DNA of 64,000 nucleotides from Escherichia phage ERS-1: sequence record PP337211. One strand, given 5' to 3'. Numbering within the stretch: the first letter of the stretch is position 1; each line of letters opens with the position of its first letter. A program made the position numbers and the translations under genes. This document shows, one piece after another, positions 3,052 to 64,000 of this stretch. Below the pieces are notes generated by a model that worked only from the letters and a program-made list of their open reading frames with translations, searched no databases and was not told the DNA's origin.

Positions 3052-3072
3052 GGGGGGCCCTTGAAGGCCCCT
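3052..3072 (-). terminator. GC-rich hairpin between upstream gene and helicase RBS (terminator-like, no clear U-tract)
   Basis: Inverted repeat ggggggccc-ttgaa-ggcccc immediately upstream (on the minus strand) of the helicase RBS; conserved in copy 2. Confidence 0.35.
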
Positions 3073-3074
3073 GA

Positions 3075-4570: not shown

Positions 4571-4596
4571 TCTTCGGCGAGGGTATTTGTATCGCT

Positions 4597-4630
4597 GAAG
4601 AAGTATAGCCGGTTGTTGCAAGAAGTAGAG
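4597..4630 (-). promoter_or_regulatory. Sigma70-like promoter, copy of the recurring family (-10 TATACT, -35 TCTACT, 16-bp spacer)
   Basis: rc sequence CTCTACTTCTTGCAACAACCGGCTATACTTCTTCAG; gene with RBS begins ~30 nt downstream. Confidence 0.45.
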
Positions 4631-6651: not shown

Positions 6652-6739
6652 GTGCGCTTGGGAGGGGGGCCCAACGCTCGACTTCGTGTGCTGAAGAAGT
6701 ATGAAGTGGAGAGGCAGTGGAAGCCCTGTGGGGCTGGGG

Positions 6740-6910
6740 GTTTATATATTCTTCTTCTTCTTCTTTAACTCACTCAACTTACTTACCTTAACCCCCGCAC
6801 GGCCTCTTGGAACCTAGGCAACGGTCGCCGGTCGCCTCCCTGGGGGTCCCGGCGATTTATCGGGCGAAGTAGAACTGAACTGGAGAAGTGAAGTAACCTA
6901 AGCGAGGAGG
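6740..6910 (-). promoter_or_regulatory. AT-rich intergenic island A: TATATA box, (AAG)5 microsatellite, conserved 31-nt element, iteron-like GAGTTA repeats
   Basis: tttatata at 6741-6748; cttcttcttcttc at 6751-6763; ttaactcactcaacttacttaccttaaccccc at 6765-6796; homologous to 31420-31640. Confidence 0.5.
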
Positions 6911-6991
6911 GTCGGAGCTGTTACGGCGCTGGGCCTTCCATGGCGCTTGGGGCTCAGACCTTCGGGCGTGAAGGTAAGTATCCCAGCGTTC

Positions 6992-7342
6992 TCATTTGCG
7001 GAACCTCTCCTTGAGGCCCAGGAGGATCGGGGAGACCAGGCTGCAGAAGAAGATGCCCAGCAGTGGCACGGTTCCCCTTCCGCTCCTGTCCTCCCCGGAC
7101 TCGCGCCACTGGCGGAGGTGTTGGAAGTCCCTCTGGCGGCCAGCGGCTGCACGTGTTGGCCCGAGCTGGACTGTGTTTGCTTCACGGCTTCTGCCGCTTA
7201 CGCTGTTGGCTCCGCGCGGACGGCCCGGCTTCCGCGGCTCGCTTCGCCGCGTCCTCGCGGTAGCTTCGCCGCCCGGGTCTGTGGCCGGGCGGCGATGTCT
7301 TCGACTTGCTCCGGGCGGGGGTGTCGGTCCTGCGCGGGTCAC
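6992..7342 (-). CDS. Small membrane protein (C-terminal transmembrane helix); holin-like candidate; N-terminal extent uncertain
   Basis: rc frame ends ...GTVPLLGIFFCSLVSPILLGLKERFRK then stop at 6992 (hydrophobic helix followed by basic tail, high GC3); lies at the end of the structural block next to island A. Confidence 0.35.
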   Translation of the reverse strand: MTRAGPTPPPGASRRHRRPATDPGGEATARTRRSEPRKPGRPRGANSVSGRSREANTVQLGPTRAAAGRQRDFQHLRQWRESGEDRSGRGTVPLLGIFFCSLVSPILLGLKERFRK

Positions 7343-7949
7343 CTCGGCTGTACTCCACGGAGTCCGGGCCCCTGGGGGTTCAGATGGCCTGTCCTGTCCG
7401 CGTCCTTCCCCTGCGAGCCCGTGGACCGTGTCGGCTTGCCGGGTGGTGTCGAGTATCGGCCCCCGATCCGGAGGCGGCGCCGCCGCCGGCGGCTTCGCGG
7501 TCGTGCCGTAGCCGCGGAGGAACTTCCCGCGCCGCCGTGCCGGTAGGCGCTGTTGGCATCCTCCGGCGGAAATGGTCCTCCCCTTCTTCGGCGAAGACTT
7601 CTGCCGTCGCCGCGCTCGAATAGCGCGCGATCCGTTGGCCCGTACCCGGTTGTTCGTGCCGGTCGGGCTCGCCGGGCTAGGCCATGCTCCCCGTCCGCGG
7701 GCGAAGCCGGTTGGGCGGTCGTGGTCGCGGACTTCGCGTGGCCCTTAGAAGGCCGTCGGTCCTGGCGGAGGAAAGACTGAAATTGGTTGTAGGGCGCTGG
7801 TCCCCCAGCGCGCCGTTCCCTTGATGCCCGTTCGGGCCGTCACTGATAGCCGTTGGGACCTTCGGTACAGTTTGGGTATGTTCCCGAGTCGCTGTTCCCG
7901 GTGCGACGTGGGATCGGTAGCTGTCCTGGCCGTCGCGGACCGCCGTGAC

Positions 7950-39900: not shown

Positions 39901-42871
39901 CCCCGAGGCGCTGATCTGCCTGCGCCACTTCCCCGTGGCTTCTCTGGCGGTTTGAGGTAGCGAAGGCGGCGCGCTGCTCCTGGTTTTCGTTCTGCTGCCT
40001 TCGCCCGTTGGCTTCGAGGCGCTTCTGCTTCTCCGGTACGTCGCGGCGAGTTCCGCCGAGCGGCCCCTCCCCGAAGGCCCGGACCGCATCCTGGGAGGCC
40101 ACCCGGGTCGATGTTGTCGCCGTACTTCTCCCCCTGGTACTCCGCGGCGGCTCCCGCCGTCCCGATCGGTCTGGAGGAGGCGCTGCTGGCTCGTGGCTGG
40201 CTGGTCGATGTCCGTGGAGGACTTCGCTGGCGGACTGGCGATGCGATCGGACCGTGACCTGGTACTTGCGGGGGTCCTCCGGGTTGCGCCCGAGGCGGGC
40301 CTGGCACGCCTGGATGGTAGTGGTTGTGCTGGTTCTCCTTCGGCGGTGGGGGTTGGCTTTCCGAGGTGGCCGCGGCCCGTAGACGTTCGCTGTCCTGGCC
40401 CTCGAAGAAGCCCCCGGCCTGGAAGGTCGGCCACCGTCCTTCGGCTCCGGCGGCGACCCCCTCCGCGGACTGGTCCGTTGGGGCGGCGTCCGCGGACTCG
40501 AAGCCCCGGCGGTGAAGAAGTGGCCGGAGTCGCTGAGGATGTAGAACTTGTCCGGTTGTCCCAGCGCGCTCCCCGGCTCCGGAGGTTATCGCGTGCTGGA
40601 CTTTCTTCCGCACGGGCTCCGGTCCGTTGCGGCGGCGGTTCACCCCCATCTGGAAGCTTCGCCGGCCCCCGAAGGTCGTTGCTTCTCCGCGACCTGGGCG
40701 AGGGTGATGAAGATGTTTGCGGGTCCTTTGCAGTTCCTGGACCTGGCTCTGGTCCAGTGTCTCGACCGGGACGGCGGCGACCGTGGCGAGGCCAGTGACC
40801 TGCTCCGCCACCTCGCCCGGTCGGCGGCGACTTCCGCCGGGCGCTTCGCCGAAGGCGTCGTCTGCCCTGCGGGTGATCGATTCTTGGGTTTCGTCGCTCG
40901 TTTGGTTCTCCGAGGTTCGGGGTACGGTTGCCCTGGGGTCGGGCGGGATCGTGCCTGTCCTGCCGCTCGAAGCGGGCCGGGTCCGGCTTCGCCCCACCTC
41001 CGCCGGGAGGACCCGGACGGAGGGGCGAGGCGTGGGGAATTGCTGCCGATCTGCGGCTCGCCGGACCGTCTCCTGGCGTTATAGGGGCCGGTCCTCCGGT
41101 GCCGCCTGCGTGGCGAGGTGGGCCAGGGCGAAGATCCTGCGGTTTCGGTCGGGCTCTGCGCTTCGAGGTGGTCGGTGGACTGGAGGAGGTCGCCGGGGAG
41201 GGGCGGGCGTCCTCCGCCTCGCGCTTGCTCCTGGAAGGCGTGCCGTGGGTTGTCGGAACAGCTCGTGTCCTGTCTTCCCCGCCCTGCTCCTCCTTCGGCA
41301 GGTCCGCGGTGTCGGCGGGAGGCTGCCCTGCCCCGGCTCGTTCCGCTCCTGGGCGTCCCGCCCGAGTTCGTTCCTGTCGCTCCTGGAACTCGCGTTCGGC
41401 CCTCGCCTTCTGGGCGTGGGCTTGTTGGTGGATGCCGTGGACGGCCCGGCGGCGGTCGGGCGTCTCCGGTGAGACGGATGGTGGTCTTGCGGCTCAGGCG
41501 GTTCTCCGGTGATCTGTTCGCCCGGAAGGGAGGCGATGGTGTCGGCTTGGTTCTGCGGTGCGGGTTTCAGTCGCACCTGGCCGGTGGCGGAGGTGGATGA
41601 CCCTCAACGGCGTCCGGCCTGTCCGGTCCCCGGAGGTGCGCTTGCTGATGTAGATTTTGCCCGCTGCCCGGCCTGGACCTCCTCGCCCTGAGCCGCCAGG
41701 ATGATCGGGTACTCCTGGACGGCGAAGCCCTGCTGCTTGCAGAAGCCGCGGCCTTCTCCGCCGGTCCGTTCCGCTTGCCGGCGGTTGGGTCGCCTCCTCG
41801 CGGAGCTGGTCCCTTTACCCGGCTGCGAAGCCTTCGGCGCGGAGCGGGGGCGAGGAGTCGAAGCTGCGGGCGAGTTCGGAGACGGTCGCCAGGAAGGGCT
41901 TGGACGGCTCCACGCCCTCGAACTCCGCCTTCGCCGAAGGTCGCCTTGGGCGCGGTGACGGCCTTCTTGACGGGGGAGCCGTTGCGACTTGCAGAAGCCC
42001 GCGACGGGACGGCGGCGCTGATGTCCCCTTACCCTTGATGGCCCGATCTTCCCGTGTTCGGCCTTCTTCTGGATGTTGTAGGTGAACTGCGAGGGGTTGT
42101 CCTGCCGGTAGGCTTGTACGCCCTGGCAGACGAAGTGGGACGGGCCGGGATGGATGTGGACGGCCTCGTGGCGCTCCTGGGTCGCTGGCAGGATGATGTC
42201 GGAGCGGAGGCCGGTGTCCCGGCCCCCGCCCGGGACCCGGTTGCGGTTTCGTCCGCGGCGACTTCCGGGACCTCGCTGGCCTCGAGCCTCGCCCCGTTCG
42301 TCCTTCGTGTTGCAGTGGCTCGCGGAAGGCTTGCCCACTTTTCCCTGCTCCGCCGACCTCCGTGGTGAAGCCCGGACGGCGGTTGTTCGCTTCGCTACCG
42401 TTGAAGTCGGTTGACCGGACGTGATCCCGCTTGATGCCGAACTCCGGCTTGCGCTTCCCGGCGTGAATGGTGATGTCGTGGCCCTCGCGGAGGAGGATGG
42501 CGATGGCGCAACTGAGGCCGGTCCCGAAGAAGCCGATGGCCCCGGGGGTTCTCCTTCCAGCTGACCCCGAAGGTGGTGATGGACTTGGGGTCAAATGATG
42601 CCCTTGTTGCGGAAGATTATCCGTTGTGACTCCTCTTGGGTTGTTGAAGGGACCTTACTCCTCCCCTTGCCGGCGGTCCGGCAGGGCTCTGTCGATCTGG
42701 GGAGCCGTCCGCGTTGCCCCGCCCCTCCGGTTGTAGCTGATATGAACCTCCGGGCGGTCCGGTAGTCTGGAGACCCTGCTGGTGCCCCGGTGGTGACGGC
42801 GAAGGCGCAGCGGAGCCTGCCGGCGTGGTCGTGCCCCGCCGGCGTCCCTTGCAGGCCGAAGGCGATTGACT

Positions 42872-47094: not shown

Positions 47095-49611
47095 TCACGG
47101 CGGAATTCCCTGTCCTGCCCGGAAATACCCTGCTCTGCCAAATTTTGCCGCTGCCTTTGACGGGAGTTCCAGCGGCGTGCGCCTCACGTGGGCGGCTTCC
47201 GCGGCCTCCTTCGTCGTGTACGCTGAAGGCGATCTCGTCGTGGACCTGGATGATGATGTCCGTCTGGCTTCCTGTGCCTCTACGCCGTCCTTGGTCTGGT
47301 CTCGCGGAGGAGCCCTGAATCTGCGGTTGGTCCCTTGTGGTTCTTGCCCGTTCTCCCGTCCTCGTCCTTCGGGAAGTGGTGCGGCGACCGCTCGGTGTCG
47401 TGACGTAGCCGGCGGCCTTCGCCCGGGCTTCGGCCTTTGCCGCTTCTCGATGCAAACGGCCTTGTGGTCGAAGGTGTCCGGGAGGGCCTGACCCTCCGGC
47501 CCCGCGGCCTCGAACCTCCGCGCCCCTTCCGCGACCTGGCGCTGACCCTCCGGGCTGTTCGTGAACGGCCGGAAGCGGGGGCGTGCGGGCGGCCATCGGT
47601 CGGGAGCCCGAGCTTGCGCTCCTCCCCTCGCCCGCCTGTCCCGGTAGGACCTGCCGGTAGATTTCCTTGGCGTCCTTGCGCTTGATCCCCGCCTGTCCGC
47701 CATCATCCGGTGGTTGTCGGTGTTCGGGTCGTTGCGGACTGTCCCGGGCTTCGATTGTGGACCTGCCCTGCTGGTGCCCGTTTGGTCTTTGCCGGGTGGC
47801 GTAGTGGACCGCCTTGCGCGGCTCCTGCTGGCTGTAGTCGTTGGACGCCCTGTGTTGGCCTTCCTCCGGGAGGTAGATGGCCCGCCGCGGCGGCGAACTC
47901 TTCCCCAGCCGGTCGCTGCTGGAGGTTCGGGTGTTCGCTGGACTGTCGCCCGTAGGCAGGCGCCGCGGTCCCGTCGCTTTCGTCTCTTCCCTTCCGGCGG
48001 CGGAGCTGGTCGAACGTCCCGTGGAGGCGCCGTTCGCCATGTGGTCCGGGACGGACTGGCGAAGGTCGTGCGCCTTGTTTGCCTTCCGGCGCGTTCGAGG
48101 AGGCTCTGCCTCGGGTGGCTGATTGAGCCCTGGCTCCTTGTCGATGTTGGGCTTGCCCTGGGAGGTTGTTCGGCTTGATGCCGATGTGTTCGAGGGCGGG
48201 GGCGATCACCTCTGGCTTCCCGGTACGCTGCGGTGATCCGGTGGCCGGTGATCGACCGGACTTGGGCGTGGGCCTCCGTCTCCTTCTCCGCGCCGGGCTG
48301 GTCGGTTGTCCTGGCGGTCGCGTCGATTGCACGCCCCGGCGGCGAAGGCCCGTGAGGATCGGGGCAGGCCGGACTCCCTGGTGCAGGTTGCCCCGGGTCC
48401 TGCCGGACCTCCCGCTCCTGACGGCGGAGGATGTTGGGTGCGCGTGTCCTCCTCCGCGCACTTCCCGAGGCCTTGGCCGGAGGTCCCGGTTGCCCTTCTT
48501 CGGGCAATCCTGTACCACCGCGGCGGCGCGTGCTTCGTCCTTGCCGTGGAAGCCCCACCGCTCCGCGATAGCTTGCATGCTGTAGCCGTCGTGGAGTTTG
48601 GCAGTTGCGGGTCTGCGATCTGGATGTCACGGAAGTAGCGGACCCGCTCCAACTCGAGTGCCGTCCCCGGCGAGGAAGTCCGTTGGTGCCAGGTTGGCCT
48701 CCCAGGTCGCCGGTGAGCACCTTTGCCGGGCGCGGAGGTAGGCCGGTACGCCCTCCGGCCGGTAGGTTGCCCCCGCCTTCGCGTCCGATGGGGAGTACCC
48801 GCCCGGGCCGTCCTCGATTGCGAAGCTGATGCCGGTGATGTAGCTGTTCGGCGACGGCCCGCCCCGGCCCCGAGCTCTCGAGGTCCGGTCCCCGCGTTCC
48901 TGCCGATGGCGACCCGCTCGGCCCTCCCACCAGGGAGGGTGCTGAGGTCCGGGGCCTCCCTGTCGCTGGAGACGGTCGTGAACAGGGTGGTTGGAGGTAT
49001 GAGGCTTGGCTCCCACCTCCGCAATCATCTTGCGCGAGGTTCAGGTGCCGCGGTCTGGCTCCGGGTCGGACTCCCGGAAGGTGAGGATGTGGACCGCTTC
49101 GGCTCCGTCCTCCGTCCTGCCCGTTCGCGGCGGCGAAGGCGTCCGGCATGACGACGGGGCGGAGCGGGGCGAGGACCCCGTTGCGGGCGCCGGACCCTCT
49201 CCCGTAGTGGATCGCCTTCTCGGAGGTCCTGGCGCGGGTCCTCGTGCTCTTGCGGTTGCGGGTCGCGCACTGGTCGCGCGGCCTTCGGTGTAGCGGAGGC
49301 CGTTGGTTCCTCCCAGCTCCTGTGTTGGACGGGCGAGCGGCAGCGCTCATCCGTCCTTGCTTTTCGTTTTGTCCTAACTCTCTTCCTTTGGTTTTGCAGC
49401 CGGAGCGTCTGCTGGCGGTAGTAATACCGGGAACCCCGCCTCCCCGTCGGTGTTGTATGGACCTTGCGGAGGTGCGCGAGTTCTTCCGTGTCGAAGGCGT
49501 AGAACTTCTGCTGCGGGCTCCTGCCGGTTGCTGGCCTCTCCAGTTGTTCGCGCACCACCTCCTCGAGAAGTCCGAGAGACGGCGATGCGGCTGGCGCTTC
49601 GCTGCCCGCAA
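47095..49611 (-). CDS. Family-A DNA polymerase (Pol I-like) with 3'-5' exonuclease domain; frame broken
   Basis: Exo I motif QQKFYAFDTEELAHL (~49490), pol motif A SNDYSQ (~47830), pol motif C TDIIIQVHDEIAFSV (~47245); order and spacing appropriate for a Pol A. Confidence 0.65.
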   Translation of the reverse strand: MRAAKRQPHRRLSDFSRRWCANNWRGQQPAGARSRSSTPSTRKNSRTSARSIQHRRGGGVPGITTASRRSGCKTKGRELGQNEKQGRMSAAARPSNTGAGRNQRPPLHRRPRDQCATRNRKSTRTRARTSEKAIHYGRGSGARNGVLAPLRPVVMPDAFAAANGQDGGRSRSGPHPHLPGVRPGARPRHLNLAQDDCGGGSQASYLQPPCSRPSPATGRPRTSAPSLVGGPSGSPSAGTRGPDLESSGPGRAVAEQLHHRHQLRNRGRPGRVLPIGREGGGNLPAGGRTGLPPRPAKVLTGDLGGQPGTNGLPRRGRHSSWSGSATSVTSRSQTRNCQTPRRLQHASYRGAVGLPRQGRSTRRRGGTGLPEEGQPGPPAKASGSARRRTRAPNILRRQEREVRQDPGQPAPGSPACPDPHGPSPPGRAIDATARTTDQPGAEKETEAHAQVRSITGHRITAAYREARGDRPRPRTHRHQAEQPPRASPTSTRSQGSISHPRQSLLERAGRQTRRTTFASPSRTTWRTAPPRDVRPAPPPEGKRRKRRDRGACLRATVQRTPEPPAATGWGRVRRRGGPSTSRRKANTGRPTTTASRSRARRSTTPPGKDQTGTSRAGPQSKPGTVRNDPNTDNHRMMADRRGSSARTPRKSTGRSYRDRRARGGAQARAPDRWPPARPRFRPFTNSPEGQRQVAEGARRFEAAGPEGQALPDTFDHKAVCIEKRQRPKPGRRPPATSRHRAVAAPLPEGRGRENGQEPQGTNRRFRAPPRDQTKDGVEAQEARRTSSSRSTTRSPSAYTTKEAAEAAHVRRTPLELPSKAAAKFGRAGYFRAGQGIPP

Positions 49612-52574
49612 GGGCGCACGGGTTCGGACTTCGGCCCCGCTCTCCCGTCACCGTCTTGCCTCTCCGGACGGCGCGACCGCTTCGTTGCCCGTGCTCCTCC
49701 CGGCGCTGCCCTGGTCGAGGGCGTCCGCGGCCTTTGCTGTCCTCCTCGTCGGGAGAAGGCCCGGGAGGTGCCTGGTCGCCTGTCGCGGCGTTCCGCGGCC
49801 TCCGTGCCCTTCCCCAGTTCGGGTGGTTCGCTCTCGCCGGGGCCGGCAATGTCGCCTGGCGGAACGCTCCGCGCAGTCGTGCCGCTTGGACCGCCTTGAC
49901 AGGTTCGGCGACGGGTGCGGGTGGAAGGAGGCTCGACGCCGTAGCTGCGCTGGGCGATGTTGTACTGACCGTGGTGCGGGACGATGTGGTCCGGTGGACC
50001 GTCCCGGCCTCCCGGGTCGCGGCGATCCGGGCGGAGCGGCGGACGGCGCGGCGGTTGGCTCCTCCGCCTCGCGCTCCTCGTCATGAATCTTGCTTCCCTG
50101 GCTTCCCTTCGTCCGCGTCTCCTCCCTGCCGCGCCGTCGTCATTGCCTGGGCCTCGCGGGCCTCGAAGGCGGCGCGGCGGCGTTGATCCGTTTCCTTCCC
50201 CGGCCGTCTTCCCGTCGGTGGCGGCGACGTTCTCCGCTCGCCCCGGGCGGCGTCGAAGCGGAGGGGTTGGACGCTTGAAAGCCTTGTGGGCCTTGAGGTT
50301 GGGATTGCTCGCGGCGGAAGAAGGGTTGCGGAAGCCGTCGGCGTCCGGCTCGCCGGTGCCCGGCTCCTGGTCGCCTTCCTGCCGGTCCGTGGAGGCTTGA
50401 AGCGGAAGGGCTCCGCGATCCCGGCGGCGTAGGGGTCGGGCGTTCCTTCCCGGGGTGTTGGGTTGGCGGCGAGGTCCGCGAGCGGGCGACCTTGCCCAGT
50501 ACCCTCATCGGCGTGGAAGTTGGCGCTGACTTGGCGGTAGATGCCTTGTTGGCCCGAGGTCCGGCGACGTCGGCGGAGGTAGCTGAAGTGGACCGCGTTG
50601 GCCCCTGTAGGCTCCCCGGGTCCCGTCGTCGGAGCGGTTGGTGCGGTCATGTCCGGCCGACCGTCGTGATCTGGAAGATGGCCTGAAGGTTGGCAGGGGA
50701 GGTCCTTGCCTTGGCGGCCTGGTCCGCGTCCGCGCTCCTGTCCAGGACCTGGCGGTGGTCATCGCGGTTCGCCTTCGGGCGGCGATGATCTTGGGCAGTG
50801 GTCCTCGAAGAAGTGCTGGCGCCCTGCGGAAGCCGTAGGCCCCGTGGAAGGTCCTGCCGTCGTCCAGTAGCTGCGCTTGCGACCGGCGAAGCGGGGCGCG
50901 CATTCCGCGTCATTGCGTCTGCCCAGCATCCAGAGGCTTTCCATCAGGTGGAAGAAGGGGTTGGCGTCCCGTTCTGCCCGGCGCGCTCCGCCGGCGGAGG
51001 CGCCGGTGGCGACGGGTTCCGGGCGTCAAGCGGGGCCGTTGCGCGAGTCGCGGCGGACGCCCTCGAAGGACCTGTCGAGAGGGCCTCCCGGGAGGGCCTG
51101 TTGTACGTTGCGGGCTTTGATGACTTTGTCTGTTAATTTGAAGATGACGTTGCCGGTCCGGCGAAGGACGCGGAAGCGGTTTGCGGGTGGTGCCCCGTTA
51201 AGCCGGCGTTCGGTTCGCGGATCGGGGGCGATAGCCCGGGACGGCGATTTTAACCGCGAAGGGGCGGGCGAACTGCTCCGCCTCGGCCCGGTTTCATTGT
51301 TTCTGACCGTGGTGACGGAGTTCGTGACGGCCTCCGCGGAGGACTTCGCCTTGGACTTCTCCGCGTCCGCTCGTCCCGGGCCTCTTCTAGGTGTCGGTGG
51401 TGGCTGTGGGCGCTTGGCGTGGTGTACCGGCGTTGTACTCGTGGGACTTGGCGATGCGGCGGCGCTCCCCGAGGTCGCGCGTGCGAAGCGTTGGCCCTCG
51501 AACTGGACCTTGACGTCGCCGTGGTCGGCAAGAAGCCGTCCGGCGCCTGCCCTTCCCGCTTGCGGAGCGGTTCCGGGTAGATGTCGTTGTACACGGCGTC
51601 CCCAGGGTGAACTTCTCCGCCTCCCTGGGCTTTTTTCGCGGGCCTCGAAGGCGTGCTGAGGACCCCTTGCCGCTCGCGGATGTAATTGGACCCGGCACCT
51701 GCCCGAACCTGGCCTCCAGTTCGTCGATGCCGCCGGAATGGTCCGGCGGCGAGGTTTCGATCCGGCGAGGGTGGTTGCCTTGCGCCGTGGTGCTCCAGCG
51801 GGTTTCTTGCCTTCGTCGGTGGTGCGCTTGCTCGTCGAACTTGGCGTGTGTTCGATGTCCCGGGCCTCGAACCGCGGCCCCCGCGCGGGCTCCCGAGCTG
51901 CGGCGGTCCGAAGGTTTCGTCGAAGCCCCGGGCGTCCGTGTTGGCTTGGCTTCGGCTCGATCAGTTTCCGCGTTCGTCTGCTCCGGGCGGGGCTTCGCGG
52001 CGAGGTCGTGCCCTGCTGGCGGTCGAGCCCGCGGATCGCCCCGGCAGGGCGTTGGCCGGTTCCGTGACGTCCTGGGCGTCGTGGTAGCGGGTGTGGCGGA
52101 GGTCGGTCACCGTTGCCCGGACGGCCCCCGCCGACCAGCGGTGCTGCTGGAATTTGGCCCTGCGCTTTCGAGGGTCGGAACCCGCGGAACCTTGGGGCTG
52201 CACTTGGCGGGCTCCGCGTCGCGCGCCCGTTCCTCGCGGTCCTCCCGGTACGGCCCGGCAATCTCCGCGATGTAGCGGTGCTTGGTCCGCTGTACCCTCC
52301 TTGGAGGGGTCGGACTCCGCGCGGATCGTGAGGCTCCGGGCGCCGCCTTGTTGCCCGCGGCGGCGTAGTCCTCCGGCGCTTCGCCGCTTCGCGGGCTCGA
52401 GTCCTCCCCTTTGCCGGGTTCCCGGCTCCGCCTTGTCCTGGAGAGCGGAGGGTGTCGGCTGTTGATGTAGCGGGCGATGGTGAGGGCGGGTCTTGTAAGG
52501 TGCGGGTGGTCCGCGTAGGGCTTGCGGATGTTCTCCTGGTCCTGGTCGTCCCGGGTTGGCTTCGCGGCAAGATG

Positions 52575-53245
52575 TTAGGGTACTGCCGCCCTCGCGAACC
52601 GGGTCCGCGGTCCGGGGCCGGGCTTCCCGGCCTTGCGGTCGGTAGACGTCGTGCCGGGCCCTTGAAGGCGGCGATGTCGTCGACGCGTGGGTGGTCGGTT
52701 CGGGGTCCTGGTCGGGCTCTCGATGACGGCCTTGATGTCCTTCGGGGCCGTCTCCCTGTGGATGTCGCGGACCGTCTCGCCGTCCGCCGTGGCCTCTCGC
52801 CGGACCCGGGCGATGGTGCGGTGCTTGTCGGCCTCTGGTTCTCCTCGACGGGCTTCCCGCCGTCGCGCTCCTGGATGTGCTTTGGGCTTCCAGCGGCGTG
52901 TCCTGAAGGCCGGGTTGTTCCGCCGTTCGCCTTCGACCCCTGCGCGTATGTAGATGGGCACTGACACCTCGCGCCCTCCAGCCCTACCGCCTTCACGTCC
53001 GGGCCCCGCCAACCAGCTCCGCGACGGCCTTGGCCGCGGCTTGGGTCTTGATCCGGTCCGGACCGGCGGTGGTCGCTCCGGCGGCGGCGGGGGTAGTCCC
53101 CGATGATGGCGATGCCGCCCGGCGCGTCGCCGGGATCGGCTTGTGGTCCGGGACGATGACGTCGATGACGTGGCCTGCGGATCGCGGTCCTGGCTGCGGG
53201 TGTGGTCTTGCCGGAGCCGTTACTGCCCTGCGTGATGTACTTCAT
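52575..53245 (-). CDS. P-loop NTPase with Walker A in the first 15 residues (ParA- or kinase-like); frame broken
   Basis: rc GGAGAACCCAAG-ATG (ATG is complement of 53243-53245): MKYITQGSNGSGKTT...; later peptides GHVIDVIVPDHKPIPA, ADGETVRDIHRETAPKDIKAVIES. Confidence 0.35.
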
Positions 53246-53556
53246 CTTGGGTTCTCCACCGGTTGAAAACGGCGGAGCCGGAGCCCCGCCTGGTTGCTGT
53301 TGGTTGCGTGATCGGGATGATCTTGCGCTCGCCGCCGTCCTCCTCCGGCGGGTCTGGTTCCACGATCTTCTTGAAGTCGGGCGAGCGGCCTTCGCCGCTC
53401 CGGCTGGTTCCGAACCGGCGGGCTTGCCCTTCGTCCGCTGTCCGCGCGGTGGAGACCTGCCGGTGGGGCGCGTCCCTTGACCTCCTGGAAGGGCTGGCCC
53501 GTCGGTCCGGTGAAGGTTCGGCACGCGCTGGCCGTGGCCGGTCTGCGGTGATCATT

Positions 53557-53955
53557 TCACGCCTTCCAAAGCCAGTGCCGGCTCCGCCGGCTCCGGGCTT
53601 CCCGCGGCGGGTCCAGGCGTCGCGTAGGTCGGTTGCCGTGCTCGTCGCCAGTTCCGGTACCTGGCCGGTGGGCTTCGACCCGGCACGGCTCCGCGATGGT
53701 CTTTTCGGGCTCCGGCCTGGTTCTCCGCGGGCTGTCGGCCAAGGCTTTGGTACGCTCCGGTCCGAACCGCTTTGGAGGCGTTCGATCATTGCCGGGGCCC
53801 GCTGTAGCCCGCCTCCCGAATTTTCGGCGATTGTGGTCGTTGCCGACCGCGGCCTGGTGCTCCAGCGTGTGGCGGATGTCGTCGTGGGTGACGATCCCCG
53901 GGATCTGCGGATTGACCTGAATGGAGGTGTAGATGCCCTGACGGCGCTCGGCCAT
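53557..53955 (-). CDS. Hypothetical protein
   Basis: ATG is complement of 53953-53955: MAERRQGIYTSIQVNPQIPGIVTHDDIRHTLEHQAAVGNDHNRRKFG... Confidence 0.25.
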   Translation of the reverse strand: MAERRQGIYTSIQVNPQIPGIVTHDDIRHTLEHQAAVGNDHNRRKFGRRATAGPGNDRTPPKRFGPERTKALADSPRRTRPEPEKTIAEPCRVEAHRPGTGTGDEHGNRPTRRLDPPREARSRRSRHWLWKA

Positions 53956-54143
53956 TTCGTCAGATGGTCCTGAAGGCTGATGGCCCCGGCAGGCCGTGCC
54001 GTTGTGGTCGTTGCCGGTGTTCTGTGACTTCTGGGCGTAGCTGTAGGGGTTCCGCTTCGGGTGCCCATGGCCCGTGACGGTAGCCGAGACGGCTGGAAAG
54101 AAGATGGTGCCGGGCTCCCGAAGGCTTCCGCCCCCGCCGGGCG

Positions 54144-54680
54144 TTATGGGCGCCGTCCCGGTTGGGAAGGGGTCCGTGAAGCTGGAGAAGTAGCCCGCGG
54201 CGGAGGTCCGGGACTTCGAGAGGGTTTGCGGACCTGCTCGCCGGAGTTCGCCGGGACGCCGATGAGGCCGGTGCCGCGGTAGCCCCGGAACCCGCTGTCG
54301 ACGTAGCAGGCGCGTGCCGCCTGTAGCCCTGGAGGTTCGTTGATCGCCTCGCTGAAGGGGCGGGCGCGGGAGCCTCGCTCGTCGTTGCGCTTGTCCTGGT
54401 ACCTGCCCTGAAGGGGCTTGGCGTTCGGGATGCGGATGTGCGGGAGGTAGGTGACGTCGTTTGAAGCGGCAGGCCCTCCACCTCCTTCTTGTCGTCGTCC
54501 TTCGCGTCGCGGACCTTCCCCTCTGCCCTTGCCGGAACTTCGCGCGGCTGGTCCTGTGGGTTTCCTTCTCCCCCATCGGGTCCTGGAACTCCCGTTGGTT
54601 CGGTCCGGCGGGCGAAGACTTGTAAGCCTCCTGCAGCGGCTTCGCCGGTTCTTCTGTCCTTGCCGCGTGGTCGGTGCCAT
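54144..54680 (-). CDS. dUTPase / dCTP-deaminase-fold protein (tentative); frame broken near the N-terminus
   Basis: rc GAAGGAGA-ATG (ATG is complement of 54678-54680); peptide [71 protein letters not shown], resembling the RSS...(I/V)D(S/P)G(F/Y)RG core of the dUTPase superfamily. Confidence 0.35.
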
Positions 54681-54704
54681 TCTCCTTCAACTGTGAAAGT
54701 CAGC

Positions 54705-54738
54705 GCCTTACCCGGAAGAAGTAAAGCGGCGTTAATTC
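54705..54738 (-). promoter_or_regulatory. Weak member of the promoter family (-35 TTTACT intact, -10 degenerate)
   Basis: rc CGCCGCTTTACTTCTTCCGGGTAAGGCGCTGACTTTCACAG directly upstream of the RBS at 54681-54688. Confidence 0.3.
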
Positions 54739-57049
54739 GGCCCGGCTCGCCCGTCGCTTCCGGGCGGCTCCCCTGGCCTTCGTCTCCTCCGAACGCCGGC
54801 GACCGGCGAACTGCCCGGAACCGTGCGGCGACCCTTCCGCGTCGGGTCGTCTGGTTGTCCTTTTGGGACCCGAGGGTGAACGCTTGGGGTTGACGGTGGC
54901 GGTCGGTCGCTGTGAACCTGGCGTCACCGCTGTCGGGGATCGGCAATTGTTCGAAGGGCTCGAGGATAGCCGATTCCTGCCGCTTGTAGTCGATGTTGGC
55001 GTGTACCGTGCTGAAGTACCTGGAGCAGGTCGGGTCCTGTGCTCCCGTCTCCGGGTCCTCCTTACAGCGGGCGTTTAGGTGAGCCGGTCCGTCACGGTTA
55101 CCGATGTTCGGGCGATGGGGCGTGGATGGACGGAAGCCTGTCGAGCGGGTCGCTGCGTTTCGGCTTTTGGGACGGTAACGGGTTGGGGAACGGGGCGGAG
55201 GCGTCCCGGGCCGCGTCCGCGTACCCGTAGCCCTCGTCCGGATGGGTCGATCCGGTTGCCCGGTCCGGCCCGCGGCCTTCTCGATGTACTCCCGGCTGGC
55301 GTCCTGGCTCCGCAGATCCGCTTGTGGAGGATGACGTCGTAGTTGCGGAGGCTCGCCTCCTCCAAGCCCTCGAGTGCCCGGCGGCGACCGTCCCCCGAGC
55401 CGACACCGATGACCGGGTCCCGGCAGTCCGGGAGGTGCGGGGCGGTGCGGACGGCCTCCGCGGCGTTCTCCGTGATCGACTCCGGGAGCTTGGGGCGTTG
55501 GCTGTAGCTGTCGTGGTAGTTCTCCTGGTGCTCTGGCCGGACGGGCGATCGCGGAGCGGCCCGCCGGGATGTCCAGGTCCGCCCCGAGCTGGCGAGCGTG
55601 CTGCTGTTGGACGCGCGGGCGTCCGCGGCCCCGTCGCGCTTGAAGCGGGGCCCGTAGTTCGCTTGCACCCGTTCCCCAGCTGCTGGCGTAGGCGACCGCC
55701 CTGCCCGCCTTCGAGCGGCACGTGTCCGGCTGCCGATGGTGGTTCTTCTGCTGGTCTCGATATGGGCGAGGCCCCGTGAATCTCGCTGAAGGACGGACCC
55801 GGAGCGCCCTGCTCTCCCGCTTCAGGATCGGCACCCCGTCAGCTGGTGTTCGACCGGGGCGTCGTTGACGATTGTTGCTGCTCTTGGGCGTGGTCGAGGA
55901 AGGCCCGTGCGGCGGAGGCGGCCTGCCTCGGTCGAGCCCGCCGTCGATTTCCCGGATGTCGTTCCGGGTGGGAGCTGGCCCTTCGCGGGATTTTCCGGTT
56001 TGCCGCCGCACCGTCTCCACCTTCTGGATGTTCGGCGGGCGGTTGCCGGGTGGGGCGAGGTCCGCGAACTGCCGGTTTGTAAGTCCGCGACCCTGGGCGA
56101 TCGCCTCGCGCTTGGGCTTCGCGTTCTCCGGGTACTCGTGAGCCTCGCGCCGCTCCGCCGTCGCGGCCTTCTCCGGTCCTTGAAGCGAAGACGGCGGCGT
56201 TGTCCGAGTCCGCCGGCATCTCGACCGGTTCCGGCTTGTCGCGATCTTGAAGCTGATCGGGACTGAAGCCGTTGTGCTCCTGGGCGCGGGCGGAGACGGT
56301 GCGGAAGGGGCGCTCCTCCTCCGTCGCCCGGGCTCCCCGGTGGGTGCCCCGCCTCCCGGGCGGTCGCCGAGCGGGCCTGGAGGGAGGTCCCGCAGTCGGC
56401 GGTGCGACCCTGGCCTGTAGCGGCGGCGCTCGCGTCCCCGGAGGCCTGTGACCCCCGGCGGGCGTCTCCTCCTCGTGGTGGGCCGCGACGTCCCTTTGCG
56501 GAACCTCGCCCTCCTTCTCCAGGAAGGAGGCGACCCCGGCGTGGAGTAGCTCCAGGTTGAGGCTAGCCTGTGGGCGGGTGGAGAAGTCCCCCGCCTGCCC
56601 GCGCCGAACCAGGGCCGTGCACACGGGGTCGGATCGCGGTGGTGATCCGGTGTCGGCCGGGAACGTCTCGATGTCCGGTTGGGGCAAGTTTCTGCCGTGT
56701 CTTTTCTCTGGTATGCGTGACCGATTTTCCCGCTCGTGTCCTTGCACATGTCCGGTTGGGTAATTGGCGACTGAAGGAAGGCTCCGTGCGGACTTCTTCG
56801 TTGACGTGAATACGGGATGGACCGTCTGCCCTTGCCGTCGCCGTCCTCCGTGATCCGGGTGAATCCCGCAGGTAGCTTGAGGGCTCCCTTCTGTATCCCC
56901 GCTCCGCCGGGCACCTCCGGCGGAGGGTAGCCGCGTGCGCTCCGAGGCTCCCAGTGGCCTTGCCCTGCTTGGGCTGGCGGGCTACCGGCGGGCGTCCTGC
57001 CTTCGGCGGACTTCTGCGGCTCGTGGGCCGGGATCGCGTGGCCTTCCGG

Positions 57050-58201: not shown

Positions 58202-60130
58202 TTAGGTCCGGCGCTGGCCGATGAGTAGGGGCTTGTTCGGTTCTTCGGGCTCCTCGCTTTCTTCTGGTGACGTTTGGTTTGAGGGCTCGCTCTGTACCGG
58301 GATGGCCCTTTGGGGTGTCCTGGTTGCGCGAAGGAGGAACCCGGCCGGTGAATCTGGGTACCGCCTTCTGTCTGTCCTTTGCACCCTCTCCGTCCGGTGG
58401 CCGGGTCGACGCGGTCCGGCTCGCCGGCTCCTCCGCCGGGGCGTCCGCTTCGGGCTCGCCGCCGTCTCTTCCTTTGCCAGGATGCCCACCGCTTCCCGCC
58501 GGGCGGAAGGTCGTGTGCCCTTCGCCCCGCCTTCCCTGGTGCTGGCTGTGTCCCAGTCTTCCCGCTGATGTCGGAGCTGCCGCCGCTCCGCTCGCCGCGG
58601 AACGACCCGCTGGGCGGCGACGGGCGGGGCGGCGACGTGTTCCTGGACGGTGACGCGGGAGGGGCCTTGCCGCGGACCCGAACGCGGTCCGTAGTCCCCC
58701 GCCTTCGCCTCGCGGGCCGCCTGAACTCGACGGCGGTGCGGTCGAAGCTGTAGGCGAGTTCGGCCGGACCGGAGCTGACGTTGTCGGGCGTGCCGACGGT
58801 CCCGGTCGGGGCGATGGAAGTGAGGTGGGAGTTGCGGATGCCGTATTTGGCGATGGCGTCCTGCGTCCTCGCGGAGGGTCTTGATGAACTGGCCCTGAAG
58901 GTACTTGTCCTTGTCGAACTTCGGGAAGGAGCCCTTGACCTTGGCGATGTGGGCGCTGCCTGGTAGGCTGCGCGTGCGCGTGTCGGTACCCTGCCTCGAA
59001 GGCGAGGAAGGCGGGCGAACCGTACGCGGCCTGGCTTCGCGCGTTGCCCTGCCGGCGATCCCGAGGCCCTTGCGGCGCTTGTCCTTGGCTTCCTGCTTCT
59101 GCTGCGGCGGGTACATCGCGCCATCAACCCGTTGCCATCGCGCGGACCACCTGCGGATGTCCTCGCGGACTGGTCCCGTCGAAGGCGTAGCGGCCCGCCC
59201 CGTCCTCTAAGATGTACTTGACCTGTTGAAGGAGCCCAGGAGGCAGGCACCGTAGGGCGGCAGGGGTTGCTCGCCGGTGGGGTTCGTGGCGGCGATGGTC
59301 TGGCGTCCTGGCGCTCGTTTGCGGTTGATCGCGTCGATTAATGGCGTACCCGGCTCCGCCTGTCCCGTTCGTGCGATCGCGTCCTGGCGCCTGGGCGTCG
59401 CTTCGCGGGCAGGTCTGGCCCTCGAAGGTGAGGGGAACGGCTCGCCGGAGGCGATGCGGCGCTGCCTTGTCGGTGATGGCGACGGAGACGTTGAAGCTGG
59501 TTGCTTTGGGTCTGCCGAAGGAGACGGGCCGCCGCTTCTGGGCTCCCTCCGGGAGTTGGTCCAGGTCCGGCGGCTGAACGTCCTTCCCGGGTTGCTTGGC
59601 GTGAATGAACTCCTCGATGTCGGGATGGTCCGCGGATCGTTGTCCGGGCTCCGCGGCGATGGCCGGCAGGAGGCGACGGCTGGCAATCGCGTCGAAGATG
59701 TGGGTGAAGCTGATGGGGCCGGAGGAGTGGGACTGGAGCTTGCGGATCGGTCGCCGCGAGGACGGAGGGTGCTGAAGTCAGGCCGATCCCCGCCGCCCTT
59801 CCCCGGTATCGCGTGGCCGCGGCTTCCGCGGCCCGGATCGCTTGACGGAGCCTTCGCCGTCCCAAGCTGTCGTTGATCGTCCCGGAGACGTAGGTTGTAT
59901 GGCGTGACCTGGCGAGTGGAGCCCGTTTGCGGACTGGATGCGGCCCGCCGGGAGGAAGCTGCGCCTGGAGGGCGTCCCGGAAGTCCGCGAAGTGCTGGTC
60001 ATTGTTCCTTCAGGGCCGCGGCGATCCGGTTCGATGGCCTCGCGGAAGGACTCGCCGCTGCCGCGGTACTTCTGGGCGTGTAGTTCTTGTGAGTAGGGTA
60101 CTTGAGGACCTGTTGTGAGTCTCCTGAAGG
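58202..60130 (-). CDS. Ribonucleotide reductase catalytic (alpha) subunit, copy 2 (3' end present); frame broken
   Basis: Same motifs as copy 1 plus RQTIAATNPTGEQPLPPYGACLLGSFN (NPCGE-type active-site region); C-terminal ...EESEEPEEPNKPLLIGQRRT then stop at 58202. Confidence 0.8.
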
Positions 60131-60139
60131 GTTGAGGGC

Positions 60140-61306
60140 TTTCTATCGTGTTGTTGCTCCTGTTCTTGGGTAGGCTGGTGAACGAGGTCGATGTGTTCCG
60201 CGGCCCGGGTAATGGCGGTGTATGCCCCTTTCCTTCCGGTCCTTCCCGTACCCCTGTCCGGGCCTGGCGGACGTTGTTCCTTCGGGAGCCCTGCGACTTG
60301 TGGACGGTGAGCGGCTGCCCGTCGAACTCCTCCGCGTCCTCCGCTCCCAAGATTCGCTTGTTGCCGTGGAAGTAGTGGGGGTGGGCGCTGACTTCGACCT
60401 TCGCGCCGTCCTCGCCTTCGATGTCCTTTACGGTCGCCGCTGTCGAAGATCGTGTCGCGGCGGACCTTCCGGCTGGCCGTTGAGGCCTGCCCGTGGTTGT
60501 TGCGGAGGTGCCGCTCGTCGCCTTCCTGGGTGGGCGTCTGTCCGCCCGAGGAGTTCCCGGGTACGTCCGTTGCTCGTGATTCTCGTGGCGTCCTGCCGGG
60601 TCAGGAGCCCTTGGCGGTGGAGGTACCATGTCCCGCAGTTCTTCGCGCTGTGGTGGCGGTGGGAATTTGTGGCTGGTCCGTAGTCGCCGGGGCGGAGGCG
60701 CGGCCCTCGCGGACCTCCTTGGAGGTCCGGAACGATCGGGTTGTCCTGGGCCTGGCGGTGAATCTCCGTGAGGATGTCGGGCTTGTTCTTGAAGAAAGGG
60801 CGCTGCCCGGCGGGAGCTGTCCGGGATCGCCTGGTGAGGATCGGTGCCGAAGCCAGGCCCTCCTCCCGCCGTCGGTTGCGGAGATTTGCGAGCGTGGCCT
60901 CGAACCAGGGGCGACTCCGCGTTGAGCTGGAAGGTCGGGCGGGCGAGGTCGATCTGCTCCGCCTTGATCGCCGCAATCGACCTTCGCGAGGGTTTCCGGG
61001 ACGGGCTTGTGAAGTGAAGAGCCGCGCCCGCTCCGCTTGGAGTTCCTTCTGGTGCTGCTGCGACTTGTCCTTGGGCGTGTAGATGAGCTTGTGAATGGGT
61101 TCCGTTGGTCGCCCCGGACTTCGTGAGGACGTGAGCGGCCTTGCCGGTGTAGGCGGCGAAGTGCCGGACCGTCGACGGTCGCGGCGAGGTGTTTGGCCGG
61201 GTGGTCTTGCCGGTTCCGGCGTACCCGGCGAGCTGGAAGGCGGGCTTGTCCCGGGTCTTGAGCGATGCTGCCCGGTTGGCGCGGTCCGCCGTTGCGGACT
61301 CCGTCA
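60140..61306 (-). CDS. RecD/Dda-like SF1B DNA helicase, copy 2 (intact ATG start with RBS); frame broken internally
   Basis: rc GAAACGGAGAACGGTC-ATG (ATG is complement of 61304-61306): MTESATADRANRAASLKTRDKPAFQLAGYAGTGKTT...FAAYTGKAAHVL...; motif V TVHKSQGS in frame with HYFHGNK; motif VI YTAITRAAEH one frame off. Confidence 0.8.
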
Positions 61307-61334
61307 TGACCGTTCTCCGTTTCTGATGAAAAGA

Positions 61335-61355
61335 AGGGGGGCCCTTGAAGGCCCC
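61335..61355 (-). terminator. GC-rich hairpin upstream of helicase RBS (copy of 3052-3072)
   Basis: ggggggccc-ttgaa-ggccccc inverted repeat. Confidence 0.35.
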
Positions 61356-61364
61356 CTGAAGGTA

Positions 61365-62100
61365 CGGCCCGAGGGCGGGCCGTCCGGGCTGGTCCTCCCG
61401 GTGGAATCGGGTCCGGCTTGCCGCCGCCTGCGCCTGGGCTTCTTCGTCCGCGAGCCCGGAGCCTGCGAACGGGCGCGCGGGCCTCGCCCTGCTCGATCGT
61501 CGATTCGATGTTCGGCGGATGGAACCTGCGGTTGTGGGCAGGAGGTGAGCCTGCTGGGCGTTCTCGCCGTCGAAGGCGATGGCGTCCCGTTGAAGAACTG
61601 GCCCTTGTCGTTCTCGCTTGCGGTCTTGAGGCGGTAGCGGTGGGCGAACCTGCGGAGCCGGAATGCGGCGACCGTCCGGCGGAATCTGGATGGCTTGGCC
61701 TTGGTCCTTCCTGCCCTTGCACTTCTTGATCTTCGTGGAGCTGAAGGCCGGTGACCGCTTCCAGGCGTTGCCGTGGTCGTTGCGCGATGCCGGCTGGCGC
61801 AAGGTTTCGATCCTGGCTCGTCGCCGTCCGGGGTGCTGCAGCTGCCGTGCCCCGAGGACGCGGCCTTGGCGGGTTCACCAGGTCGCCGTCGACTTCGTGG
61901 ATGCCCGCAAACCGCCGCCCGCATCGCGTGGGCTTCCACGCCACGTACACGTGCCGGGTGGTCGCCGGGACGAGTGGACGCCCTTGGCCGTCCCGGCTTC
62001 GCCGGTCCCGGTGTTGGATCATGCCCTGGTGGTGCTGTCGTTCTCCTGGAGCTGCGGGCTGAGGGCCTGAGAATCTGGAGGAACGGGATGCTGTAGTCAT
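61365..62100 (-). CDS. Hypothetical protein upstream of helicase, copy 2; frame broken
   Basis: Homologous to 3075-3800; shares the SIPFLQIL and DTIAFDGE peptides but with different indels. Confidence 0.3.
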
Positions 62101-62702
62101 TGCTGGTCTGGCTCTCGAAAACCCGCGCGCCCGCGTAGTGGTGCGTGCCTGGCCTCTGCGGTTGCGGTGTTCTGTTCCTTCAGCCCGAGGTCGGTGGTCT
62201 TGCTATCGGTCTTCTGGCGGTTACAGGCTCCTTCGGTTCGATGTGAGCGGGTCGATTGGGCCCCCGGTCGAATAGCCCTGCCGTTCCTGCCGGTGTACCC
62301 GCGTCCCGCGGGGCGGTTCGGCTCGGGAGGAAGGCCCGGGGCCGTCCTCCTTCCTGGTTTGTTCTTCGATCTTGGACGTGCTGACGATGGACCCAGGTGT
62401 CGGGGGACTTCCTCGCCTTGCGTGGCCCTCGCGGACGAAAGCGGTAGGGTTGAAGGATGGACGCTGGCGTTGTCGCCGCCTCGAACTCGTCCGCGAGACG
62501 CTGGCGGTTCGCTGCCTTCTGCCCCTCGCCCTTGCCGAAGGCGACGGTGACCCGCGCTCGATCATCGCGGCGCGGCCGTTCTGCTCGAGCCGGCGAAGGC
62601 GAGCGGGGCCTTGGCCTTCGGGATGCTGGCGCGGATCGTCTCGTCGGGTTTGATCTTCTGGCGGTGGTGGTCTTGAGCTGCCAAGTTGCGCCGATCTGGT
62701 CC

Positions 62703-62887
62703 TTAGTTTGTACCCTGGCGCTCCGCGATGTCGCGGAGTTCTTCGCGGGCCTTGTCGAGTTGGGCTTCGAGGTCTGCGACCTTCGACTGGGCGCCTGTTG
62801 TTCGGCCTGCTGAGCGAGTTGGTCCTGGCTTGTCGCCGGCGGTCTGAGGTTGGACATAGTCCAGGTATGCGTTTTCACTTGAGGCAT
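62703..62887 (-). CDS. Small coiled-coil protein, copy 2 (ATG and stop present, one internal frameshift)
   Basis: rc GGAGAACCAC-ATG (ATG is complement of 62885-62887); C-terminal frame ...SKVADLEAQLDKAREELRDIAERQGTN then stop at 62703; length is not a multiple of 3. Confidence 0.35.
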
Positions 62888-62927
62888 GTGGTTCTCCGTT
62901 TCTTCGGTAGAGGGGTATCCCAATTGC

Positions 62928-62965
62928 TGAAGAAGTATAGCCGGTTGTTCGGAAGAAGTAAAGAG
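62928..62965 (-). promoter_or_regulatory. Sigma70-like promoter of the recurring family (-35 TTTACT 62957-62962, -10 TATACT 62934-62939, 17-bp spacer)
   Basis: rc CCTCTTTACTTCTTCCGAACAACCGGCTATACTTCTTCAG; paralogue of 4597-4630. Confidence 0.55.
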
Positions 62966-64000
62966 GCCCAGGCGTCCACCGCGATGTAGCGTTGGTCCTT
63001 GCCGCTCCCTTAGCAGGGACGTCCCGTCGTTGGCGTCCGCGGCGATGGCGACGGCGAACCGATTGGGTACCGGATCGCCCGAGGCGAGGTGGTCCCCCGG
63101 CCCGAAGTCGGCCCGCTTTCTCCTCGGGCCGGTCATTCGGCTCCGGGCGGAAGGGGCCGCGGTCGGGCGGCGGGCACCGGCCTTCCCCAACTCCTCCGCC
63201 GGCGAGGTTGAATTTGGGCTCGAACCGCTGCTCGTCGCGGTCCCTGCGGTGTTGGTCTGTACAAATACACGGCTCGGGGTAGTCGTCACAACCTGTCTTT
63301 GAGGCGGTCGCCGGTGATCTGGCTCGCCCGTCCAATTCGTTTCGGCTTTCCCCTTCCCTTCCCCGGAGTCCTGCGCCCAGGTCGATGCACCTGCCCGTTG
63401 TTGGTCTGTCCGATCCGGTGGGCGCGGTCCTCCGACTGGAGGCGGTCGTTTGGCTTGAAGCTGTTGGAATAATAAAATGACCTGCTCTGGCTGTGGTCGG
63501 GTGCCGGTGCTGCGTCGCCCCCGCCGCGGGGTTGCCCTTTAGCCTCGCGGGCCCGCTCCTCCGGCGGACGGCCTCGCGCCCTGGACCCTGCCCGTTGTGG
63601 GCAGCGGGCGCTCGCCCTGGAACCGGGCCTCGGCGTCCGCCCGCTCGTCGTTCGTTTCCTGCCCTGCGGCGGACCGCGCCGACGCCGCGCTCGCGGAGGG
63701 CGTCCATTTGGTGATGTCCGCTTCTGGAACCGGGCCCGGTCATCGCCTTGCGCCGGACTCCGACGGTTCCGGGGTGTCGGTGACGGCTCGGCCCCGGGAT
63801 TGTGTACCCGGGTTCCGCTTCGTCGTCGGTCGGGAGGTAGCTGGCGTGATCTGCTGGAGGCGGAGGAGCCGGGTGATGGCGAGGGCGGCGATGACCGGGG
63901 CGGTGCCCTCCGCGCCCTGTCGGGGCGTCTCCTGGTCGGTGGGTAGACGAAGCCGTTGAAATTTTTTACCGCCGTTTGCCCGGTGCCGGGCGTCCGGCGA

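Follow-up and report, generated by a model that had tools for sequence, protein, structure and literature searches.

Within the 64,000 nucleotides (nt) analysed from Escherichia phage ERS-1 (sequence record PP337211; this whole stretch is called the window below), a gene on the minus strand begins at position 53245 with a P-loop and is then scattered over three reading frames. This raises the question of which protein the gene encodes, and why its frames are broken. The gene is, with high confidence, a 5-hydroxymethyluracil DNA kinase (5-HMUDK) of an M6/YuA/MP1412-like Yuavirus, acting as described for the M6 pathway. Yuavirus comprises siphoviruses resembling M6, YuA and MP1412, with Pseudomonas aeruginosa as host. 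As such, the kinase gene is already known: the enzyme has been characterised, and its phage genus has been sampled well. The breaks in the gene lead to a second finding, on the way in which the window was sequenced.

The start of the gene was read correctly in the first-pass annotation. A GGAGAA ribosome-binding site (53257..53252) is followed by the spacer CCCAAG (6 nt) and an ATG at 53245..53243 (minus strand), which is also the annotated start in the orthologs M6 gp54, MP1412 gp13 and YuA gp13. The Walker A motif announced for the first 15 residues is present as well, since 53245..53201 on the minus strand translates to MKYITQGSNGSGKTT, in which GSNGSGKTT conforms to the pattern GxxxxGK[ST]. 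The first residues of the orthologs are MKYINVRGCNGSGKTT; compared to these, the window has lost 3 nt and shows R7 changed to Q and C9 to S, differences put down to sequencing errors. The downstream peptides, from which no family could be picked at the time, turn out to stem from this protein, out of frame with its start: GHVIDVIVPDHKPIPA represents residues ~27-42, while ADGETVRDIH.ETA.KDIKAVIE is the C-terminus. A frameshift-repaired translation was indeed needed, as the tblastn matches of the protein over 53245 to 52716 fall in frames -1, -2 and -3. The proposed span of 52575-53245 holds at its start and fails at its lower end: the gene stops around 52710, with the TGA stop just after 52710 unreadable in the window sequence, and 52697..52575 belongs to the next gene, a homolog of HMUDK_hel, the first ~120 nt of which had been included. 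The features of the kinase gene are the following.

52710..53245, minus strand: coding sequence of the 5-HMUDK; 187 amino acids (aa) in the orthologs, three frames as read, 82% nt identity and full-length colinearity with MP1412
53252..53257, minus strand: ribosome-binding site GGAGAA, read directly and also conserved in MP1412
53201..53227, minus strand: Walker A motif (P-loop) GSNGSGKTT, consensus R-G-C-N-G-S-G-K-T-T
53093..53113, minus strand: beta-strand IAIIGD(Y), ending in the invariant G53-D54-Y55; strand 49-53 in the AlphaFold2 model
52973..52987, minus strand: Walker-B-like strand VLFEG, reading VGLEG; F94, E95 and G96 are invariant, E95 is retained; strand 91-94 in the model
52856..52879, minus strand: lid helix R131-x3-R135-N-G-G, reading HIQERDGG; R135, G137 and G138 are retained

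The repaired protein matches M6 positions 41685-42239 (tblastn, E = 3e-51), corresponding to the coding sequence PPM6_gp054 (gp54, YP_001294562.1). From the start codon to the C-terminus, the gene aligns with YuA gp13 and with MP1412 gp13, a "putative kinase" of 187 aa that is identical to M6 gp54 in 185 of 187 positions. MP1412 gp13 was assigned to Pfam family PF18748 (HMUDK_HMUD1, "5-hmdU DNA kinase", where 5-hmdU is 5-hydroxymethyldeoxyuridine) with a score of 65.3 bits, the cut-off being 27 (E = 6.9e-18), and all other P-loop Pfam families found on it remain under their curated cut-offs. The search for homologs returned 169 database proteins (E≤0.001), and PF18748 is present in all of the best 120 of these 169. 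A subfamily hidden Markov model (HMM), built from our own alignment (A1), matches the repaired protein over positions 1-185 with an E-value of 2.9e-53; when all six frames of the window were scanned, it matched at the kinase locus only. NCBIfam contains no model for the 5-HMUDK family and yielded only sub-threshold P-loop noise. For M6 gp54 itself, the activity is established: together with ATP, it converts 5-hmdU in SP8 DNA to 5-phosphomethyldeoxyuridine (5-PmdU) under release of ADP, and gp54 and gp51 are together required for the formation of N-alpha-glycinylthymidine (PMC8989533). The YuA 5-HMUDK has been purified for in vitro assays (PMC13458397).

Based on an alignment of 39 diverse homologs, 35 positions are invariant in this family. 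These are N5, R7, G8, N10, G11, G13, K14, T15 and R19 in the N-terminal part around Walker A; G53, D54, Y55, G66, D68, Q73, K77, F94, E95 and G96 in the middle; T101, I102, P105, W106, W118, T123, P124, C128 and L129 further on; and R131, R135, N136, G137, G138, K149 and K159 in the C-terminal part. As read, the window keeps 22 of the 35. In the P-loop (QGSNGSGKTT, 53230..53201, minus strand), G8, N10, G11, G13, K14 and T15 are retained and R7 reads Q, the family motif being RGxNG[SA]GKT. A Walker B motif or other NTPase features, named earlier as the thing to look for after repair, are there in the form of G53-D54, E95 at the end of an hhhhE strand and R135/G137/G138 of the RxxxRNGG lid. By analogy with other P-loop kinases, K14 and T15 would contact Mg and the phosphates of ATP, D54 or E95 might serve as catalytic base or Mg ligand, and R131 and R135 would be the lid arginines. 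For a close homolog (P0002), AlphaFold2 predicts an alpha/beta P-loop topology, with a mean predicted local distance difference test score of 92.9. The best fold neighbours of this model in the PDB are the polynucleotide kinase of C. thermocellum (4gp7) and adenylate, UMP/CMP and gluconate kinases, at a template modelling score of ~0.5 and 12-16% identity; a sequence search of the PDB detected no solved relative.

Two observations weigh against this assignment. Thirteen of the 35 positions invariant in the family read as altered or broken, so that intactness is not provable from this sequence alone, and the window's own repaired translation, with broken codons either given as X or deleted, matches no Pfam family at E≤1. 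The family assignment therefore leans on intact relatives, to which the gene is orthologous, and on the self-built subfamily HMM. When the MP1412 codons are projected onto the window, 130 of 187 residues are identical, 26 codons are broken by indels and 31 carry substitutions. T-containing codons are changed in 32 of 66 cases, compared to 25 of 121 codons without T (Fisher p = 1e-4). The altered invariant residues likewise lie mostly in T-containing codons (TAC, TTC, TGG, TGC, CTG) or beside indels, which fits read error, and it is the corruption of conserved W, F, Y, C and L codons that causes the Pfam match to be missed.

Among the other readings of the protein, the one that survives best, though highly improbable, is a kinase for free nucleotides (dNMP, thymidylate or 5-hmdUMP) which feeds the dNTP pool and does not act on DNA. 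Sub-threshold matches to Thymidylate_kin (E = 5.8e-4), dNK, SKI and AAA_18/33 and to dTMP kinase in NCBIfam speak for it, as do the adenylate and UMP/CMP kinases among the structural neighbours and the annotation of the AN14 ortholog as a thymidylate kinase. However, these matches lie under the curated cut-offs while PF18748 is well over its own, the top fold match is a polynucleotide kinase, and the gene co-occurs with a DNA transferase that uses its product. In addition, M6 gp54 puts labelled phosphate on polymeric 5-hmdU DNA (PMC8989533).

Very improbable, and slightly more so, is the small terminase subunit, the label that RefSeq gives to M6 gp54, YuA gp13 and MP1412 gp13. This product name agrees with PHROG 800 ('terminase small subunit'), which matches the MP1412 ortholog with E = 9.5e-39. 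However, the match spans only 33-211 of 511 profile positions, pointing to a heterogeneous cluster, and Pfam reports on MP1412 gp13 only PF18748 and kinase/AAA P-loop families, with no terminase family among them. The fold neighbours are kinases, and the gene is located within a nucleotide-modification and replication module, ~24 kb from the large terminase gene in MP1412. Directly upstream of that gene (TerL), MP1412 gp50 (phrog_4044, E = 7.5e-63) is a separate candidate for the small terminase. According to the biochemical work on M6, gp54 is a DNA-base kinase (PMC8989533). The terminase label on 5-HMUDK proteins is therefore most likely a misannotation.

Next to the identity of the 5-HMUDK stands the question of its broken frames, which cannot be separated from the quality of the window as a whole. 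A 3-kb stretch around the gene has ~82% nt identity over 100% of the query to more than 60 Yuavirus genomes, and is shorter than these relatives by ~145 nt (about 5% deletions). The window is colinear with the full MP1412 genome on the minus strand and wraps around, as window 90-7315 and window 58391-63956 both align to MP1412 positions up to 7648. The segments 1-5700 and 58300-64000 are copies of one region, reaching from the helicase to the ribonucleotide reductase (MP1412 1837-7648), with a repeat period of ~58.3 kb. Because this segment is present twice, the window is longer than one genome length. Compared to each other, the two copies (~5.7 kb) are only 84.6% identical, with 471 mismatches and 436 gaps in 5,903 columns, which means that the sequence is as rich in errors as an uncorrected single-molecule read and that these errors are stochastic. 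The window thus resembles an uncorrected read that runs across a concatemer or a terminal redundancy. Where coverage is double and the nearest TG lies more than 8 nt away, the random error per copy is ~3.5% and the true divergence between the window phage and MP1412 is at most 2.6%.

Every gene of the window tested by tblastn is broken among frames. Since all genes are split in this way and the duplicate copies differ by 15%, the frameshifts are not specific to the kinase gene; we infer that they are read errors and not a property of the gene, which would be intact in the real phage. The window also holds very long open reading frames (ORFs) of 832-984 aa, e.g. 47095..49611, 51026..53524 and 53960..56914 (all minus strand), that encode Arg/Pro-rich nonsense. 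These giant ORFs are artefacts, as TGA and ATG are rarely read intact and stops and starts consequently vanish.

A decayed pseudogene, or a remnant of a ParA-like or defence NTPase with real frameshifts, is accordingly a very remote prospect, as improbable as the terminase. It would account for the several frameshifts, the missing stop codon and the 13 of 35 altered invariant residues as read, but all window genes are equally broken, the duplicate 5.7 kb copies with their 84.6% identity show the errors to be stochastic, the changes concentrate in T-containing codons and, genome-wide, at TG, and a ParA family match is lacking. A ParA/MinD-like ATPase finds no support: MP1412 gp13 has no ParA/CbiA Pfam match at E≤1, its fold neighbours are kinases, and the motif GxNGSGKTT is without the signature lysine of the deviant Walker A (KGGxGK[ST]). 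Of the options in the first-pass annotation, nucleotide kinase and anti-defence NTPase thus pointed the right way and ParA-like did not, the specific 5-hmdU DNA kinase family having gone unnamed; the evidence singles out a P-loop kinase that serves anti-defence by way of DNA hypermodification against restriction.

The errors in the window are not evenly distributed. Miscalls were counted on the minus strand of the window, over all genes, against MP1412 (JX131330.1). On this coding strand, 42% of the T's are changed or deleted, compared to 19% of A, 17% of G and 10% of C. The loss is concentrated at TG, where T is read as T in only 19% of cases (n = 3149), whereas isolated TA, TC and TT (more than 6 nt from any TG; n = 346, 1,737 and 545, respectively) are read as T in 92-94%. 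The other calls at TG thymines are a deletion (27%), C (28%), A (17%) or G (10%). Errors at other bases amount to 30-37% beside a TG thymine and fall within ~5 nt on either side to a baseline of 8%. No context dependence was found in a wider motif around TG (positions -2, -1, +2 and +3). In the doubly covered segment, both copies show a non-T at 68% of the TG thymines, versus 7% for TC. As a result, the TG dinucleotide occurs in the window at 28% of its MP1412 frequency, and the trinucleotides ATG, TGA, TGG and CTG are read intact in only 10, 14, 12 and 10% of cases, respectively. These lost TGs explain the missing stop of the kinase gene, the frameshifts, the giant ORFs and the apparent substitutions of W, L and C. 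The window has a G+C content of 68%, and its plus strand is poor in A (6,649 A vs 13,595 T). This A/T skew was considered as a genuine phage trait and rejected, as the skew of MP1412 is only mild and it is at TG sites that the T's have been lost.

Of the T on the read strand, 37% is followed by G; by our own arithmetic, with CA counted as TG of the other strand, the share over both strands is ~33%. This share is near the ~30% of T replaced by 5-(2-aminoethyl)-deoxyuridine (5-NedU) in M6, a measured value; YuA and MP1412 were predicted by Lee et al. (2018) to contain 5-NedU as well (PMC5889632). According to Flodman et al. (2019), a preference for TG/TC can be deduced from restriction resistance, and an unpublished remark in the same paper states that the purified M6 kinase modifies TG dinucleotides (PMC6449724). 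We infer that the error pattern is the footprint of the pathway product, 5-NedU, on the sequenced DNA. Taken as a whole, we lean slightly towards reading the window as a native single-molecule read over a concatemer or terminal redundancy, the miscalls of which form a map of thymine hypermodification at base resolution, with practically all TG thymines of the read strand modified and no modification detectable at TC, TA or TT.

One observation counts against this. There is an excess of A>G changes at CA (17% vs 6% for other A's) that a pure single-strand read does not explain; it persists far from any TG on the same strand, i.e. opposite the TG thymines of the complementary strand. The TG specificity itself may be set by the kinase or by the transferase. 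If true, the hypermodification map would be direct, genome-wide evidence, in a Yuavirus, for a strict TG specificity of the 5-HMUDK-initiated pathway, and would sharpen the published 'TG or TC' deduction made from restriction resistance and the unpublished remark. A literature search found no direct nanopore mapping of 5-NedU in a Yuavirus, only restriction-based deductions.

The surroundings of the 5-HMUDK gene hold a complete 5-NedU cluster of the M6 type, in the same gene order as in M6 (ADDT, PLP, rSAM, kinase, HMUDK_hel, Nmad5, TS-like, where PLP stands for pyridoxal phosphate, rSAM for radical S-adenosylmethionine and TS for thymidylate synthase). The neighbouring genes are as follows.

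55875..56698, minus strand: amino-acid:DNA transferase homolog (M6 gp51, glycine:DNA transferase; ADDT PF18724, aGPT-Pplase2); tblastn E = 1e-49, Pfam E = 1.5e-46
~55164..55873, minus strand: PLP-dependent decarboxylase homolog (M6 gp52; MP1412 gp11); tblastn E = 1e-29, Pfam PALP on the reference protein
53298..54675, minus strand: radical-SAM glycinyl-thymine isomerase homolog (M6 gp53; MP1412 gp12); tblastn E = 8e-51, Pfam Radical_SAM on the reference protein
51761..52697, minus strand: HMUDK_hel homolog (MP1412 gp14 / M6 gp55; PF18723, formerly aGPT-Pplase1); found by tblastn, Pfam E = 8.8e-59 on the MP1412 protein
51166..51707, minus strand: Nmad5 (nucleotide-modification-associated domain 5) homolog; found by tblastn, PF18757 E = 5.8e-51 on the MP1412 protein
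50078..51131, minus strand: thymidylate-synthase-like dUMP hydroxymethylase homolog; tblastn E = 2e-72, Pfam Thymidylat_synt
49527..50091, minus strand: HD-family (YfbR-like) protein
47095..49005, minus strand: DNA polymerase A

The thymidylate-synthase-like gene, ~1.6 kb downstream of the kinase, is labelled deoxyuridylate hydroxymethyltransferase in MP1412 and YuA. It is the pair of PLP and radical-SAM genes, and not the FAD (flavin adenine dinucleotide) lyase and acetyltransferase of the PaMx11 type, that separates the transferase from the kinase. In M6, gp51 swaps the phosphate for glycine, gp53 isomerises and gp52 decarboxylates to 5-NedU, gp55 being dispensable for glycinylation in vitro (PMC8989533). 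The HMUDK_hel protein might contribute to the selection of sites.

With this set of genes, and by the route established for M6, T would be replaced by 5-hmdU during replication of the phage, from a precursor made by the thymidylate-synthase-like dUMP hydroxymethylase. The kinase would then move the gamma-phosphate of ATP onto the 5-hydroxymethyl group of 5-hmdU in double-stranded DNA, yielding 5-PmdU, the phosphate of which would act as a leaving group that the neighbouring amino-acid:DNA transferase replaces by glycine. The radical-SAM isomerase and the PLP decarboxylase are predicted to complete the synthesis of 5-NedU, shielding the DNA from host nucleases. The pathway was presumably active in the DNA that was sequenced, as the TG thymines of the read strand are almost always miscalled, and its specificity may well be determined at the step where the kinase chooses its TG sites.

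Compared to M6 gp54, YuA gp13 and MP1412 gp13, the window gene has the same start codon, ribosome-binding site, length and gene order and is colinear over its whole extent. Despite the read errors, the amino-acid identity to M6 gp54 is ~70%, and Walker A, GDY, FEG and RxxxRNGG are recognisable. The real amino-acid identity is probably 97% or more, judging by the nt divergence of at most 2.6% in the doubled segment elsewhere in the window. No real difference from M6 gp54 is demonstrable, all differences being compatible with sequencing error (T-containing codons and indels).

The same Pfam family and the same reaction from 5-hmdU to 5-PmdU are shared by PaMx11 gp49, phiW-14 gp37, ViI gp67/gp243 and SP10 gp186 (PMC8989533). 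The chemistry downstream differs: PaMx11 uses a FAD lyase and an acetyltransferase, phiW-14 putrescine, ViI serine and SP10 glutamate, while the window is of the M6 (5-NedU) type. In SP10 gp186, the kinase domain is followed by a further domain at the C-terminus (PMC8989533), whereas HMUDK_hel is a separate downstream gene in the window. The enzyme shares several features with the kinase domain of C. thermocellum Pnkp (4gp7) and the nucleoside monophosphate (NMP) kinases: the P-loop phosphotransferase fold (Foldseek probability 1.0), a Walker A at the N-terminus, an acidic residue that follows an inner strand, and a lid helix with arginine. The acceptor of those kinases is a 5'-OH end or a free nucleotide, whereas that of 5-HMUDK is the hydroxymethyl group of a base in duplex DNA, and 5-HMUDK has the additional conserved elements TTAGxDR, W106, W118 and C128. 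A parallel in site choice is phage SH-Ab 15599 with its alpha-dapT system (2026, PMC13458397), a thymine hypermodification that is also initiated by a 5-HMUDK and is reported to occur predominantly at TG, the TG fraction matching the abundance of the modified base. This phage differs in its host, its ligand (1,3-diaminopropane) and its transferase. Its TG specificity was deduced from restriction resistance, that of the window from miscalls per site along one long sequence.

Since the kinase itself is known, what is worth passing on from this locus is the TG-specific miscall signature and the propagated misannotation. Sequences of hypermodified phages can enter databases with systematic, motif-specific errors. 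In this case such errors remove start codons (ATG), stop codons (TGA) and the codons of Trp, Cys, Leu and Val, leaving gene callers with spurious ORFs and readers with "frameshifted" genes. They are informative at the same time, placing the modification at TG in line with the restriction-based reports for 5-HMUDK phages, which suggests that uncorrected long reads could be mined for mapping such modifications and for inferring kinase specificity. As for the naming, the PHROG 800 label propagates, the proper name being 5-hmdU DNA kinase. Records bearing the terminase label include M6 NC_007809 gp054, YuA NC_010116 gp13 and MP1412 NC_018282, among others, and further labels found on 5-HMUDK records are baseplate hub protein, thymidylate kinase and NTP hydrolase.

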